NCBI GenBank assembly: GCA_041660145.1
Contig: JBAZWX010000001.1
Coordinates: 1,662 to 32,144 of the forward strand
Direction of reading: 5' to 3'
Length of the DNA stretch: 30,483 nucleotides
DNA from: Minisyncoccota bacterium
GTDB taxonomy: Bacteria; Patescibacteriota; Minisyncoccia; Phycocordibacterales; UBA12445
In this document: piece after piece, positions 17,909 to 21,658 of the stretch
How the letters are laid out: every line of letters starts with the position of its first letter
How positions within the stretch are numbered: position 1 is the first letter of the stretch
The notes under the pieces: model-generated
What the model was told of the DNA's origin: nothing
Database searches by the model: none
The model's input: only the letters and a program-made list of their open reading frames with translations
Made by a program: the position numbers and the translations under genes

Positions 17909-18001
17909 ATAGGATAGACTACTATAAAGAGAGAGGGGAATCCACTTGTTTTTTGTGGACCTATTGTGGTATAACTCTAATCTCTTAAAAATTTAAAAAA
18001 T

Positions 18002-18598
18002 ATGAAAGGTAGAAAATTAGCAATGATTTCTGTTTCGGACAGAACGGGCTTGGCACATTTTGTGAAAGGTCTTTCTGGCGCTGAGTTCGATATTGTGTCT
18101 ACAAGGGGTACGGCTAAATTTTTGCGTGACAAAGGTGTAAGAGTTATAGATGTTGAGAAATTTACCGGAGTACCGCCACTCGTTGGTCTTCGGGGAATAA
18201 AAATGATTCACACTAAAGTGTTTACTGGAGTTTTGGCAGATAAGAGTAATCCAGAACACCTGGCTGATCTTAAAAGCATTGGTATCCGTCCTTTTGATAT
18301 GGTCGTGTGTAATTTTTATCCTTTCCACAAATCTGTGAAAAGTAAGAAACTTAGCCATGTTGAAAAAATAGATTTTATAGACATAGGAGGACCAGCGTTG
18401 GTTAGATGCGGTGCCAAAAATTATAGAAATGTAACGGTTGTTACGTCACCAAAGGATTATGGTATGGTTTGGAAAGAAATAAAGGAATGCGGCAATACAA
18501 CTTATAAAACAAGAAAGGATTTGGCGCTAAAAGCTTTTGAATATACAAGGTGGCACGATTCACTAATTATTGAATATTTAAAACATGCAAAAGATTGA
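18002..18598 (+). CDS. purH: Stand-alone IMP cyclohydrolase (PurH N-terminal, MGS-like) domain protein
   Basis: ISVSD.TG, ST.GT, VCNFYPF, IDIGGPAL.R..AKN, V.SP.DY, LA.KAF motifs; ends where the transformylase domain would begin. Confidence 0.8.
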   Translation: MKGRKLAMISVSDRTGLAHFVKGLSGAEFDIVSTRGTAKFLRDKGVRVIDVEKFTGVPPLVGLRGIKMIHTKVFTGVLADKSNPEHLADLKSIGIRPFDMVVCNFYPFHKSVKSKKLSHVEKIDFIDIGGPALVRCGAKNYRNVTVVTSPKDYGMVWKEIKECGNTTYKTRKDLALKAFEYTRWHDSLIIEYLKHAKD

Positions 18599-19598
18599 GT
18601 GTAAAAAGTGTGTAAATAATAATGCGAATCCTTCCATAACCTTTGATAGTGAGGGTCTTTGTAATGTTTGTGTGTTGTATCAAAAGAATTTTAACCGAGA
18701 GAAACTAAAAAAAGAGCTTGGTTTTGTTAAAGAGTTTATGGGCAAAAAAGGCGATCAAGGTTTTGACGCTATGGTTGGAATATCTGGGGGGAAAGATAGT
18801 ACGGCCACTTTATATACTTTAAGAAAGATGGGTTTTTCTCCGTTAGCTTTTACTTTTGACACAGGTTATTATCCCAAGCACGAATTTGGGAGAGCCAAAT
18901 GTGTGGCCGATAAGCTGGGTGTCGAATACGAAAAAATCGATATACGAAAATATGTAAGAAAGATTGATCGGCAATGCTATAAATTAATGGCTGATTTGTA
19001 CGATAAAAAAGTTTCTCCGGAATTGGCTGACGAGTTTAGAAAACTTTACAAGGAAAATCGTAAACATTACTCAATAAAATGTAAGCATGTTATTCCCTTT
19101 GTCCGGACGTGTCAGCTTTGTCGTCGTACTGTTATACGGGCGTACTATGCCGAGGCGATAAAACATGGCGTGCGTCTTATTGTTTTGGGTGTCAACGAGT
19201 GGGCCGGCCTAAGTCGTGTTAATGCAGGCCAGAGTGGCTATTTGTCTGCTATTCGACAGCTTAAGCCTTACAAAAATAAACCAGCTGTTTTCGTTGTTCA
19301 TCTTCCTTTTTTGCTTCAAAGGAAGATGTCAGACACAAGAAAGATACTAAAGAAAATTTCTTGGAAAGCACCTAAAAGTGAGGGTTTGGTTGAGTCAAAT
19401 TCTAATTCTTGTCTTTTGGGTCTTGCTGCAGAATCTAAAGCCAAAATGCTTTTGGGTTTTCACCCAGATTCGACCCGTTTGGCAAGAGAAGTGACTGTAG
19501 GGTTCTTAACGAAGAAAGAGGCCAAAATTGCGTTAGCAAAAACCCACAAAACAAAATTAACGGTTCGGGGAGTTTTGTCTAAGGCCGGATTAATATAA
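18585..19598 (+). CDS. PP-loop ATP pyrophosphatase (adenine nucleotide alpha-hydrolase-like) with N-terminal Cys ribbon
   Basis: CKKC...CNVC, ISGGKDS, FTFDTG, CQLCRR and a distal SNSC; overlaps the upstream gene by 14 nt. Confidence 0.8.
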   Translation: MQKIECKKCVNNNANPSITFDSEGLCNVCVLYQKNFNREKLKKELGFVKEFMGKKGDQGFDAMVGISGGKDSTATLYTLRKMGFSPLAFTFDTGYYPKHEFGRAKCVADKLGVEYEKIDIRKYVRKIDRQCYKLMADLYDKKVSPELADEFRKLYKENRKHYSIKCKHVIPFVRTCQLCRRTVIRAYYAEAIKHGVRLIVLGVNEWAGLSRVNAGQSGYLSAIRQLKPYKNKPAVFVVHLPFLLQRKMSDTRKILKKISWKAPKSEGLVESNSNSCLLGLAAESKAKMLLGFHPDSTRLAREVTVGFLTKKEAKIALAKTHKTKLTVRGVLSKAGLI

Positions 19599-19718
19599 CG
19601 GGGTTGACCCCGATTAGAAGTCTTACTTTTGTGTCGTCCTGCGCATTAGAAATATCAGCGCTTTTTCGTTTTTTGTCGTGTTAGAAAAACAAGTTATAGA
19701 ACTTCTAACGGGGTTGAC
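19596..19718. repeat. About 120-bp MITE-like inverted-repeat element
   Basis: CGGGGT-TG-ACCCCG palindrome at 19599-19612; TAACGGGGTTGAC repeated at 19596 and 19706; ACCCCG(A)TTAGAAGT at 19607-19621 is the near-perfect inverse of ACTTCTAACGGGGT at 19701-19714. Confidence 0.6.
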
Positions 19719-19787: not shown

Positions 19788-19952
19788 ATGCCGGAGATGA
19801 CCGAAAAGAGGTCTAACCGTTTGGCAGTTTTGGCCTTGCTGGCTTACTTTATTGTGGCTGTTGTCATTATCCTTTGTGCAGATGAGCCTGGTCAGAAGAA
19901 TGTTGGCACGACTTCTGGTGTTTCCCCTGTTTCTTCGTATAGCCAGAAGTAA
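19788..19952 (+). CDS. Small single-TM protein (54 aa)
   Basis: AGGAGG SD, one TM helix, upstream TTGACT-16-TAATGT, downstream terminator. Confidence 0.6.
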   Translation: MPEMTEKRSNRLAVLALLAYFIVAVVIILCADEPGQKNVGTTSGVSPVSSYSQK

Positions 19953-19970
19953 AACGTACCTTGTCTTTGT

Positions 19971-20000
19971 GGCACTCCTTGGCGGGGTGCCTTTATCTTT
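19971..20000 (+). terminator. Intrinsic terminator
   Basis: GGCACTCC-TTGGC-GGGGTGCC followed by TTTATCTTT. Confidence 0.6.
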
Positions 20001-20029
20001 AAAACAGAAATGCCGCCATTTCAGGCGGC
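20001..20029 (-). terminator. Intrinsic terminator for the 41-aa peptide gene
   Basis: Minus strand GCCGCC-TGAAAT-GGCGGC followed by ATTTCTGTTTT. Confidence 0.6.
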
Positions 20030-20035
20030 TGATCG

Positions 20036-20161
20036 TTACACATAGAGAAACTTCTGGTGATCGCCATGCTTGTCGTCTTCGTCTGCATCATCGATGTCGG
20101 CTGGATCAAGGACAGGACCTTCATACTCGCTGGTTGTTGGCTTACCAGTGGTTTCTGCCAT
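20036..20161 (-). CDS. 41-aa acidic peptide MAETTGKPTTSEYEGPVLDPADIDDADEDDKHGDHQKFLYV
   Basis: Manually translated; preceded by TTGACT-16-TACTAT and a 6-nt gap, followed by its own terminator; below the ORF-track size cutoff. Confidence 0.65.
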   Translation of the reverse strand: MAETTGKPTTSEYEGPVLDPADIDDADEDDKHGDHQKFLYV

Positions 20162-20167
20162 ATGGTT

Positions 20168-20195
20168 ATAGTATTCTTTTGCGTATGTGAGTCAA
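20168..20195 (-). promoter_or_regulatory. sigma70-like leaderless promoter for the peptide gene
   Basis: -35 TTGACT (20195-20190), 16 bp, -10 TACTAT (20173-20168). Confidence 0.55.
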
Positions 20196-20209
20196 TGGTT
20201 CTTTCTTTA

Positions 20210-20241
20210 AAAAAGTAAATGCCCGCAGGGGGTCTGCGAGG
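20210..20241 (-). terminator. Intrinsic terminator
   Basis: Minus strand GCC(T)CGCAG-ACCCC-CTGCGGGC followed by ATTTACTTTTTT. Confidence 0.55.
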
Positions 20242-20263
20242 CGGGGGAAAATTCTGTAACATG

Positions 20264-20758
20264 TTAACCAGTTATTTCTTGGTCCCAGGGACATTCCGTT
20301 GTTTCCGTGCCGGGAACGGTTGGCTCACAGCCCCAAACAAGAGCATGACATTCCCAATGTGCCCGACTACTGCTACTTGCATGTTTATCCCAAGGTTCTC
20401 CTCCACCAAGATGTCCAATGAACGCGGTTATTATGGTGTACGATGTCCGGTGGGGTCTTCGGGCGAGAACAATGGCCATAGTTTTGCAAGGTTCTGGCTT
20501 ACGGTTTTTTACAAACCTAGTGTGACCTCTTCGCCCAAACCTCTTGGCGTAGATGACTTCGTCGTCTGGTCCCGTTTCGACTTTGTTGGTTTTGCCGATG
20601 ACTCTTCCGAAGTTGACCTCTGTGGAGATAAATTTTTCACCATTTGATCTTATTGTCGAGAGAGCTTTGGCCAAAAGGACATGAGAGATGTTGTGTATGT
20701 GACGTTGCTCACCAAAACGATGGAAGACTTTTTCTCCCGATGCCAGTCTTAGTTCCAA
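20264..20758 (-). CDS. Hypothetical soluble protein (164 aa)
   Basis: GAGGAG SD before TTG; upstream TTGACA-16-TAATAT; protein-like sequence with RFVKNR.PEP, ITAFIG, EPWD, HALVW motifs. Confidence 0.75.
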   Translation of the reverse strand: MELRLASGEKVFHRFGEQRHIHNISHVLLAKALSTIRSNGEKFISTEVNFGRVIGKTNKVETGPDDEVIYAKRFGRRGHTRFVKNRKPEPCKTMAIVLARRPHRTSYTIITAFIGHLGGGEPWDKHASSSSRAHWECHALVWGCEPTVPGTETTECPWDQEITG

Positions 20759-20827
20759 AAGGCTCCTCTCTTCTGGTCGTTTTTTTCAACTTGGCCTGTT
20801 GCGACAGGCCGTTGCAATCTTCTGGGT

Positions 20828-20900
20828 ATATTACATTTATTTTTATTTTTGTCAAACTTCTGTACTTTTCATTGACACACATCATATTTTGTGATAGTTT
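20828..20900. promoter_or_regulatory. Back-to-back divergent sigma70 promoters
   Basis: Plus: TTGACA(20872)-17-TG.TAGTTT; minus: TTGACA(20855)-16-TAATAT. Confidence 0.55.
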
Positions 20901-20986
20901 AAAAGGCAGAATTTTACTGCAGAACCGCGCGACGTCCAAGACAAAAAACTGGTTGTTCTACCAGTTTTGCAAAGGAGGAGATTTTC

Positions 20987-21658
20987 TTGGATCAGCAGGG
21001 TAGAGACCAACGCTTTTGGGGATGGGTCGTTGTCATAGTTTTATCTCTGTCCTATGTACCTCTTGCTGTCGGTGGTTGGAACCATCCAGAAGAGATTAAT
21101 CTGGCTTCTTACAGTATTTGGACCGTTATGGCGAGCATGCTTCTTTTCTCTGAGCTTTGGGGGAGAAACCCTGGCTGGAGAATTTCATGCGCGTTTGTTA
21201 TCGGAGATATCGGTCTGATCTTGCTTGGGCTTTTTCACGGAGGATACACCTTCAATCTTGGTTTGTCTGAAATCGTTGTCCTGTATGGAATAATCATAAC
21301 GATTGGGTCATTTGTGACCTACGGTTTCATAACAAAGAGAGTCGAGGAGTACATCCTGTATTTTGGGGGAGTTGCGGTCGACCTGATATCTTTCTACCCA
21401 CAGGCCAAGCAGTATCTTTTGCCTGGACACGACCGATTGTCGGTTATGTCTTTGTGCGGTTGGATCGGGTGGATGATCGGGATAACGATCAGCATTATTT
21501 TTGTTGAAGAGTTCTTCCGGAGGTTACGAATGCCGGCGGCTCTCTATCAGGAAGTATATGGAGAAGAAAAGAACCGGCTGAAGATCTGCTCTTCCTCATT
21601 GTTTTCTGTTGAACAGATTTTCTTCATGTCCGCGATGGTCTTTGTGATGACAAGATGA
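20987..21658 (+). CDS. Hypothetical multi-pass membrane protein (possible PQ-loop-like)
   Basis: GGAGGAG SD before TTG; about 6-7 TM segments; ISFYPQAKQY resembles a PQ-loop. Family call is weak. Confidence 0.75.
   Translation: MDQQGRDQRFWGWVVVIVLSLSYVPLAVGGWNHPEEINLASYSIWTVMASMLLFSELWGRNPGWRISCAFVIGDIGLILLGLFHGGYTFNLGLSEIVVLYGIIITIGSFVTYGFITKRVEEYILYFGGVAVDLISFYPQAKQYLLPGHDRLSVMSLCGWIGWMIGITISIIFVEEFFRRLRMPAALYQEVYGEEKNRLKICSSSLFSVEQIFFMSAMVFVMTR

Follow-up and report, generated by a model that had tools for sequence, protein, structure and literature searches.

Two overlapping genes on the forward strand of a 30,483-nucleotide (nt) stretch of a Minisyncoccota genome (hereafter the window, meaning the whole stretch that was analyzed) form a conserved functional pair and are not chance neighbors. 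Gene 1 encodes a stand-alone protein resembling inosine monophosphate (IMP) cyclohydrolase (IMPCH), and gene 2 encodes a PP-loop ATP pyrophosphatase with an N-terminal zinc ribbon. We regard the two as partners because the same IMPCH subfamily is found upstream of, downstream of, or fused to the same PP-loop family amid unrelated flanking genes. Our favored proposal, to which we give an even chance, is that they would act as one module that tailors a free purine nucleotide through an ATP-dependent and probably iron-sulfur (Fe-S)-dependent exchange of oxygen for sulfur on IMP or its ring-open precursor. The features that carry this argument are as follows.

18002..18598, + strand: gene 1 (P0001), 198 aa, a stand-alone IMP-cyclohydrolase-like protein with the MGS-like fold of the PurH N-domain; PP-loop-linked IMPCH subfamily.
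18200-18202 (K67), 18317-18319 (Y106), 18380-18382 (D127), and 18416-18418 (K139), + strand: catalytic codons of gene 1, from the alignment to human ATIC (1p4r); columns invariant in alignment A2.
18585..18598, + strand: the 14-nt overlap of genes 1 and 2, with the ATG of gene 2 within the final codons of gene 1 (translational coupling).
18585..19598, + strand: gene 2 (P0002), 337 aa, a zinc-ribbon PP-loop ATP pyrophosphatase of an uncharacterized family, without the usual N-terminal kinase domain.
18600..18671, + strand: Cys4 zinc ribbon (C6, C9, C26, and C29), invariant in alignments A1 and A3.
18783..18800, + strand: PP-loop SGGKDS (residues 67-72), the motif of ATP alpha-beta cleavage.
19110..19121, + strand: C176-x-x-C179 (C176-Q-L-C179-R-R), the first and second Cys of a putative [4Fe-4S] triad, opening helix 175-193 in the model.
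19410..19412, + strand: C276 in an NSNSC motif, the third Cys of the putative triad, from the alignments.

A preliminary description, made from the letters of this DNA, had reported two genes overlapping by 14 nt in a window with no other purine genes. Both reading frames and the overlap at 18585-18598 were verified, and a scan of the window proteins revealed no purine gene other than gene 1.

Residues 5-196 of gene 1 correspond to positions 6-196 of the 510-position NCBIfam purH model, so that the protein comprises the N-terminal cyclohydrolase part only, as had been claimed. Two Pfam models match above their cut-offs (MGS, PF02142, 51.6 bits; the first 60 positions of AICARFT_IMPCHas, PF01808, 54.5 bits), and the scores against the bifunctional PurH models TIGR00355 and NF002049 (194 and 204 bits) lie below the cut-offs of 528 and 402. 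Among solved structures, PurH/ATIC chains match best (E = 1e-44 to 1e-35). The residues listed for the IMPCH active site are Arg64, Lys66, Tyr104, Asp125, and Lys137 (PMC9525906). In the alignment to human ATIC (1p4r), which is in register with gene 1 through residue 64, all five are retained as R64, K67, Y106, D127, and K139, and the K, Y, D, and K columns are invariant in A2, which contains both linked and canonical IMPCHs. The same alignment bears out the earlier statement that the catalytic residues are kept and that the substrate-contact changes (SDR, RGT, KMIHT, and HD) are real. Relative to ATIC, the substitutions are K14R (SDK to SDR), G35R (GGT to RGT, in STRGT), T67M, P70T, and YD to HD, and the segment GGR-VKTLHP becomes GLRGIKMIHT, with a one-residue insertion ahead of the catalytic Lys. 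Gene 1 therefore departs from both canonical substrate loops, i.e., the S-G-G-T phosphate loop and the G-G-R-V-K-T-L-H-P loop with Thr67. Replacement of Gly35 by Arg, Lys, or Leu, the one-residue insertion, and replacement of Thr67 by Met, Ile, Leu, or Ser are common to the linked IMPCHs in A2, whereas K14R and YD to HD are not. From the retained residues, gene 1 is predicted to be a catalytically intact yet specialized IMPCH. A literature search on IMP cyclohydrolase in the Candidate Phyla Radiation (CPR) found no paper.

The host genome (827 kb, 108 contigs, rated 90% complete) lacks the context that a split purH would need. No second PF01808 match, and hence no AICAR transformylase (AICARFT) domain, was found in it (AICAR, 5-aminoimidazole-4-carboxamide ribonucleotide), nor were matches to adenylosuccinate synthetase (purA), IMP dehydrogenase (guaB), the GMP synthase C-domain (guaA), SAICAR synthetase (purC), or Lyase_1 (PurB). 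Each of these purine-gene profile searches was positive in 12-14 of 14 control genomes; at 90% completeness the absence of any single gene is not proven, yet with all of them missing together a de novo pathway would be difficult to sustain. Gene 1 is thus not half of a split purH, since neither AICARFT nor purA, purB, purC, guaA, or guaB was found. This reading was rejected, and the purH C-terminal part that the preliminary description had proposed to look for elsewhere did not turn up. The same losses, together with full-length purH genes elsewhere in the phylum, including some in the same order, would suit a decaying purH remnant of genome reduction with no present function. We consider this very improbable, as the reading frame is intact, the catalytic residues are invariant, the gene is translationally coupled to gene 2, and its clade is conserved at 45-52% identity in distant genomes, always with a PP-loop gene.

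The linkage between the two families was examined in architectures and in gene neighborhoods. Among 162 members of the gene 2 family with an intact N-terminus, an N-terminal nucleoside-monophosphate (NMP)-kinase-like P-loop domain is present in 114 (AAA_18/AAA_17/SKI, with weak similarity to adenylate or (deoxy)cytidylate kinase), 40 stand alone, 5 carry an N-terminal IMPCH domain (P0040, P0069, P0096, P0241, and P0285), and 3 have another N-terminal extension. An IMPCH is fused or adjacent in 7 of the 21 contexts with usable flanks, a set that is not random, the stand-alone forms and the clade of the window having been picked on purpose. The IMPCH gene lies upstream of and overlaps a stand-alone PP-loop gene in the window and in two further loci (L164 and L166), lies upstream of a kinase-PP-loop fusion in two (L002 and L169), lies downstream of the PP-loop gene in one (L076), and is fused to it in one (L008). 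Half of the stand-alone PP-loop forms examined (4 of 8) adjoin an IMPCH. A structure prediction of the natural fusion P0040 gave two confident domains (mean predicted local distance difference test score [pLDDT] = 85, predicted template modeling score [pTM] = 0.61). The flanking genes vary among the IMPCH-PP-loop loci and, because gene order beyond the core genes is not conserved, the neighborhoods point to no further partner.

The claim that the pair is a purine-modification cassette thus holds in part: the conserved linkage is borne out by the three arrangements, the fusions, and a separate IMPCH clade, but the IMPCH is not the main partner of the family, 114 of 162 members having the kinase-like domain instead. 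Linkage, which the preliminary description had suggested following across genomes and phages, was recovered in the former and not in the latter, where viral contigs and GenBank phages contained no true member of the gene 2 family.

Two trees, both quick searches supported by the Shimodaira-Hasegawa-like approximate likelihood ratio test (SH-aLRT) only, show that the IMPCH and PP-loop families co-evolve. A single group of the 129-row IMPCH tree takes in all 10 linked IMPCHs and P0124, the contig of which breaks off with no further gene downstream (SH-aLRT = 92); canonical PurH N-domains and other stand-alone IMPCHs of the CPR fall elsewhere. The members of the linked clade are 200-aa proteins with 45-52% identity among distant genomes. 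In the PP-loop tree (156 rows, IQ-TREE), gene 2 falls in a five-row clade with P0003, P0004, P0007, and P0010 (SH-aLRT = 96), with an IMPCH adjacent to four of these proteins and a kinase domain in three. The simplest reading of this pattern is that the ancestor of the clade had an IMPCH with a kinase-PP-loop protein and that the kinase domain would then have been lost in the lineage of the window. Searches of the host genome for a homolog of the kinase domain yielded matches at the Walker A level only, and for this reason we regard the module as missing. IMPCH-linked forms occupy at least four separate places in the PP-loop tree.

The sister clade of the linked IMPCHs (starred, 95) includes P0127, which lies in an operon (L175:843-5394) whose other genes encode an ECF-transporter T component, a fused double ABC ATPase, and two phosphoribosyltransferase-like proteins, the last two genes overlapping that for the IMPCH on either side. 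This operon looks like a system that imports an imidazole or purine-precursor base, phosphoribosylates it, and then closes the ring, and a salvage route for the free bases of AICAR and its formylated form FAICAR (AICA and FAICA) is possible. In another genome of Patescibacteria (L171:1555-3672, G136:C12), a stand-alone IMPCH of 211 aa lies directly beside IMP dehydrogenase, and no member of the PP-loop family was found in that genome sample. These two contexts suggest that the stand-alone IMPCHs of the phylum make IMP for a downstream consumer without AICAR transformylase.

The motifs that had been read in gene 2 were all verified, i.e., the double-CxxC ribbon at the N-terminus, SGGKDS, CQLCRR, and a distal Cys. 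Across the 28 family members aligned, C6xxC9...C26xxC29, SGGKDS (67-72), C176xxC179, and C276 never vary. The only Pfam matches are weak ones to the PP-loop models NAD_synthase and QueC. The scores fall below the cut-offs of the models for three families that the preliminary description had put forward for comparison: QueC (TIGR00364; 30 bits versus 150.3, over the PP-loop region only), TtcA (NF007972; 20.2 versus 272 bits), and the sugar amidotransferase WbuX (TIGR03573; 81 versus 203.2 bits, over residues 6-137 only), the last being the best NCBIfam match. The TtuA model (NF049949; 16.6 versus 450 bits) and the MnmA model are also far from their cut-offs. Homologs are variously named QueC, TilS, or "AAA family ATPase" in databases, and no member of the family has been studied so far.

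A word-indexed search with gene 2 returned 383 homologs with about 56-65% identity, nearly all from CPR metagenomes (including Candidatus Vogel-, Harrison-, Sung-, Yanofsky-, and Lloydbacteria) and one from a Micrarchaeaceae archaeon (DPANN). When 1.84 billion cluster representatives were searched exhaustively with a profile, 56 matched at E <= 1e-30; beyond this level, the matches are restricted to the N-terminal ribbon and PP-loop. The family is therefore small and sharply bounded, with about 56 clusters at 50% identity from the CPR, one DPANN archaeon, and one Streptomyces. Of 401 genomes sampled evenly over the phylum, 2 were found to contain it, so that its distribution is sporadic despite high conservation. 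The Streptomyces representative, from S. thermocoprophilus JCM 10918 (L016:5303-13558), is full-length with 48% identity to gene 2 and is followed by an overlapping uridine-kinase-like gene; this gene pair is carried on an integrative element, with a DDE transposase, a DUF4231 protein, and a pSAM2-type RepSA replication initiator as flanking genes. Viral contigs, GenBank phages, and plasmids yielded distant QueC-like or CtaC-like PP-loop genes only. PADLOC defense models matched neither P0001 nor P0002, and the kinase domain of P0003 was matched at the P-loop level only.

Enzymes of the PP-loop superfamily activate a carbonyl or carboxyl oxygen by adenylation and then swap it for nitrogen or sulfur, and in those with a CxxC...C triad, a [4Fe-4S] cluster delivers the sulfide. 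The AlphaFold2 model of gene 2, built from a 28-sequence alignment, is of high confidence (mean pLDDT = 93, pTM = 0.90). Its best Foldseek match is the N-acetyl sugar amidotransferase (NASAT) of Legionella pneumophila (8wex; E = 4e-11, template modeling score [TM] = 0.57/0.51), followed by TtuA, NcsA, NAD synthetase, MnmA, LarE, and GMP synthetase ATPPase domains with TM of about 0.3-0.4; an ESM Atlas search agrees with NASAT as the nearest fold. This match and that to TIGR03573 are what would speak for gene 2 being an ordinary envelope sugar amidotransferase of the WbuX/WbpG/PseA type, with the adjacency of gene 1 meaningless. The TIGR03573 match, however, reaches only 81 of 203 bits in the N-terminal third, the family is sharply separate (the 56 clusters at E <= 1e-30), and polysaccharide or glutamine-amidotransferase genes were found neither in the window nor in 20 related loci. 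Recurrent linkage and fusion to IMPCH and kinases contradict this explanation as well, and the lipopolysaccharide-type enzyme that the preliminary description had named among the outcomes that would refute it is in our view very improbable.

The three Cys outside the ribbon distinguish gene 2 from its nearest fold. In alignment A3, C176, C179, and C276 align with Cys residues in full-length relatives from Lachnospiraceae and other sources (D76/S77, C146/C149, and C265 in the numbering of those relatives), whereas NASAT-like sequences have Gln or Val, Thr, and Asp or Ser at these positions. The Lachnospiraceae proteins, which resemble CtaC, align with gene 2 over their full length with 22-26% identity and all three Cys in register. 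In the model, helix 175-193 has C176 at its start and leads into strand 198-201, and C276 precedes helix 277-290, an arrangement that resembles the cluster-ligand topology of TtuA. In CtaC, the exchange of oxygen for sulfur depends on D77/S78, on C154/C157/C284, and on an oxygen-labile Fe-S cluster (PMC6772006); the corresponding residues of gene 2, in an alignment made with CtaC look-alikes, are D71/S72, C176/C179, and C276.

The genes of these Lachnospiraceae relatives lie in conserved clusters (L034:1482-8984, L038, L019, and L041) with an AMP-binding enzyme, a 76-aa carrier-like protein, MBOAT, and GNAT. Such CtaC-like/Dlt-like clusters may make thioamidated envelope or peptide products. 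A further set of large proteins (P0305-P0388; 1,200-5,400 aa) contains an internal module that matches only the zinc ribbon and PP-loop part of the profile; these are presumably megasynthases of the nonribosomal peptide or polyketide synthase type with an embedded PP-loop tailoring domain.

The layout of PP-loop, N-terminal zinc ribbon, and three Cys is also that of TtuA and NcsA, which are the next-best fold matches, and several invariant Arg and Lys residues could bind a phosphate backbone. Gene 2 might then be a tRNA thiolase of the TtuA/NcsA/TtcA kind, with the IMPCH- and kinase-like modules as nucleotide-binding or regulatory add-ons. We think this improbable. The scores for the TtcA, TtuA, and MnmA models are far under their cut-offs, the fold is nearer to NASAT (TM of 0.57 versus about 0.4), the sporadic distribution is unlike that of a conserved tRNA modification, and every partner (IMPCH, NMP or nucleoside kinases, Ham1, and NUDIX) is an enzyme that works on small-molecule nucleotides. 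Moreover, the linked IMPCH retains every catalytic residue, which favors catalysis rather than mere binding.

In the proposed oxygen-to-sulfur exchange, gene 2 would adenylate an amide or lactam carbonyl of the substrate and then exchange the oxygen. The replacement atom would most likely be sulfide held on a [4Fe-4S] cluster at C176, C179, and C276, and less likely ammonia. Gene 1 would interconvert ring-open (FAICAR-type) and ring-closed (IMP-type) forms of the same nucleotide, and it would either supply IMP to the PP-loop enzyme or close the ring after modification of the carboxamide. Thiolation at the C6 lactam or the 4-carboxamide carbonyl would give a 6-thio purine nucleotide (thio-IMP) as the most likely product. 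In most relatives, an NMP- or nucleoside-kinase-like domain replaces or supplements the cyclohydrolase, as would be expected if they shared a nucleoside monophosphate as intermediate. The fusions and gene pairs narrow the candidate substrates to IMP, FAICAR, AICAR, and inosine; IMP or FAICAR/AICAR is the most likely, because the partners (IMPCH, kinases, a Ham1 fragment, and NUDIX) make or handle nucleoside monophosphates and IMPCH makes IMP. A hydrophobic residue in place of Thr67 in the linked IMPCHs would fit sulfur at the 6-oxo position, which is speculation. As to the sulfur source, the only class-V aminotransferase matches of the host genome, which resemble cysteine desulfurase, are two halves at contig ends (G000:C68:3898-4548 and G000:C104:2322-2741), probably one gene split by the assembly. 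We infer Fe-S binding, the substrate, the inserted atom, and the order of the steps.

The main rival is amination, in which the PP-loop enzyme would be an amidotransferase or aminase with the chemistry of NASAT and GMP synthase: it would adenylate the C6=O of IMP (or the C2=O of xanthosine monophosphate) and add ammonia to yield AMP (or GMP), bypassing PurA/PurB or GuaA, and the kinase of the relatives would make the diphosphate. The nearest fold and NCBIfam model are N-acetyl sugar amidotransferases, the kinase domains of relatives weakly resemble adenylate or (deoxy)cytidylate kinases, and IMP from gene 1 would otherwise be a dead end, given that purA, purB, guaA, and guaB were not found. 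On the other hand, NASAT-like proteins do not have the invariant CxxC...C triad, which CtaC-like thiolase relatives do have. None of the contexts examined links the family to a glutaminase or to a HisH/HisF-type donor of ammonia, and one would hardly expect a core AMP/GMP route in just 2 of 401 genomes when PurA/GuaA is missing from all these organisms. We therefore judge amination unlikely, although clearly less so than the tRNA, envelope-sugar, and remnant explanations.

Several points weigh against oxygen-to-sulfur exchange on a purine nucleotide. IMPCH is a minority partner of the PP-loop family, the commonest being the NMP-kinase-like domain, and five genomes that carry the kinase-PP-loop fusion have no IMPCH or PurH, from which it follows that the cyclohydrolase is dispensable for the core reaction. 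No FAICAR-making route is apparent in the host genome. The SufBD core was not found in this 90%-complete genome, other Fe-S assembly systems not having been searched. The C176/C179/C276 triad could bind a second structural zinc, its clustering near the PP-loop is predicted from alignment and topology, and NASAT, to which the fold is closest, transfers nitrogen. The substrate may be a pyrimidine, as the Streptomyces partner resembles a pyrimidine nucleoside kinase. The Ham1 gene beside one fusion (described below) may be a remnant. The family itself is known from sequences, contexts, and models.

The physiological role of the module may lie in salvage or in conflict by way of an antimetabolite. 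Sporadic spread at about 60% identity over distant lineages, one archaeon among them, carriage on a Streptomyces integrative element, and overlapping XRE regulators are features typical of accessory or conflict-type systems; against this stand the negative PADLOC, phage, and plasmid searches and the ordinary chromosomal setting of the window. A broader and more tentative idea, which is possible but in our opinion rather doubtful, is that CPR, DPANN, and one Streptomyces mobile element share an unrecognized thiopurine-nucleotide pathway (e.g., 6-thio-IMP from IMP or FAICAR) composed of a [4Fe-4S] PP-loop enzyme and a dedicated cyclohydrolase or kinase, the product being an antimetabolite against hosts, competitors, or phages or a new intermediate. 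If the inferred chemistry holds, gene 2 would be the first PP-loop enzyme of the Fe-S type with a free purine nucleotide as its substrate, and there would be a second, YcfA-independent enzymatic route to thiopurines. The IMP-cyclohydrolase fold would also be seen for the first time in a role other than de novo purine synthesis and formycin-type pathways, and this in organisms unable to make purines. It would also bear on how ultra-small symbionts obtain or weaponize nucleotides.

Within the window, the surroundings of the pair are ordinary chromosomal synteny common to the nearest relative, with genes for RecG, RsmE, a PD-(D/E)XK protein, a Kelch-S11 carboxypeptidase, and a DEAD-box helicase. 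Genome sizes among relatives in the collection are 0.5-0.9 Mb, and together with the named homologs they mark the host as a CPR/Patescibacteria organism of the Paceibacteria type. Two noncoding features border the pair.

17909..18001, + strand: intergenic region of 93 nt upstream of gene 1, between gene 1 and the divergent PBP/Kelch gene, from the map of open reading frames (ORFs) and the sequence.
19600..19613, + strand: GC-rich hairpin immediately 3' of the gene 2 stop, a weak, consensus-type call.

The promoter of genes 1 and 2 probably lies in 17909..18001, where a promoter scan called no strong consensus promoter, and the hairpin is a possible end of a two-gene transcript. Further 3' of the pair, at 19852-21658, are four ORFs (112, 142, 119, and 223 aa) without a Pfam match.

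A few features of other family members are also worth recording. P0254 (878 aa) has a 545-residue N-terminal extension with matches to an APH-type phosphotransferase/TCAD9 and to AAA_16 ahead of the kinase-like region and PP-loop. An RdgB/Ham1 gene (L007:6579-7004) overlaps the start of one kinase-PP-loop fusion; it begins at profile position 62-65, and because it is N-terminally truncated it carries little weight. Two unrelated contigs each carry an XRE-family helix-turn-helix gene (L074:178-603 and L012:2836-3093) that runs into the start of a kinase-PP-loop fusion. A NUDIX hydrolase gene adjoins one kinase-fused form (L077), and small methyltransferase genes lie beside two stand-alone PP-loop forms (L075 and L165).

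Compared with known systems, gene 1 has the MGS-like fold family and catalytic residues in common with PurH/ATIC and differs from these enzymes in its altered loops, in its separate clade tied to PP-loop proteins, and in that no AICARFT domain was found in the genome. ForH of formycin biosynthesis (6NKO) is, similar to gene 1, a stand-alone IMPCH, but it is more distant (E = 1e-19); it is a precedent for a stand-alone IMPCH that closes the ring of a non-standard purine-like nucleotide. A second point of comparison is nickel-pincer cofactor synthesis, in which LarB, a PurE-like protein derived from the purine pathway, works with LarE. LarE, of which some forms bind [4Fe-4S], is a PP-loop sulfur transferase that acts on a free nucleotide and is among the fold matches of gene 2. 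The pair in the window differs in that its purine-pathway homolog is of the PurH N-domain instead of PurE, the PP-loop subfamily is another one, and neither LarC nor a lactate racemase context is present.

YcfA adenylates the C6 carbonyl of GTP, whose oxygen is replaced by sulfur through addition of L-cysteine and the pyridoxal-phosphate (PLP)-dependent C-S lyase YcfC (PMC12494993). The YcfA-YcfC pair of 6-thioguanine biosynthesis is thus a precedent for thiolating a free purine nucleotide, with a sulfur delivery that differs from the proposed Fe-S route. No YcfC-like or PLP lyase gene is linked to gene 2, and no YcfA chain was among the PDB sequence matches at E <= 1 or the 50 Foldseek matches listed, the presence of a YcfA entry in the PDB set being unconfirmed.

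The NASAT structure 8WEX has a zinc-binding tetracysteine and SGGKDS (PMC10607449). Like gene 2, NASAT enzymes (WbuX/WbpG/PseA; TIGR03573) have an N-terminal Cys4 ribbon followed by an SGGKDS Rossmann domain, and they activate an acyclic amide carbonyl (N-acetyl) with ATP. Gene 2 differs in an insert of about 38 residues (137-174) and a C-terminal half of its own and in its nucleotide-enzyme partners: NASAT is accompanied by HisH/HisF-like or polysaccharide genes, whereas the gene 2 family is accompanied by IMPCH and kinases. TtuA, NcsA, and TtcA share with gene 2 the PP-loop and the CxxC with a distal Cys, and their substrate is tRNA. CtaC, the [4Fe-4S]-dependent thioamide synthetase of closthioamide biosynthesis, acts on carrier-protein-bound peptides, whereas the gene 2 family is linked to IMPCH and kinases. 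Gene 2 is thus nearest to NASAT in fold and nearest to the Fe-S thiolases TtuA, NcsA, and CtaC in its catalytic motif.

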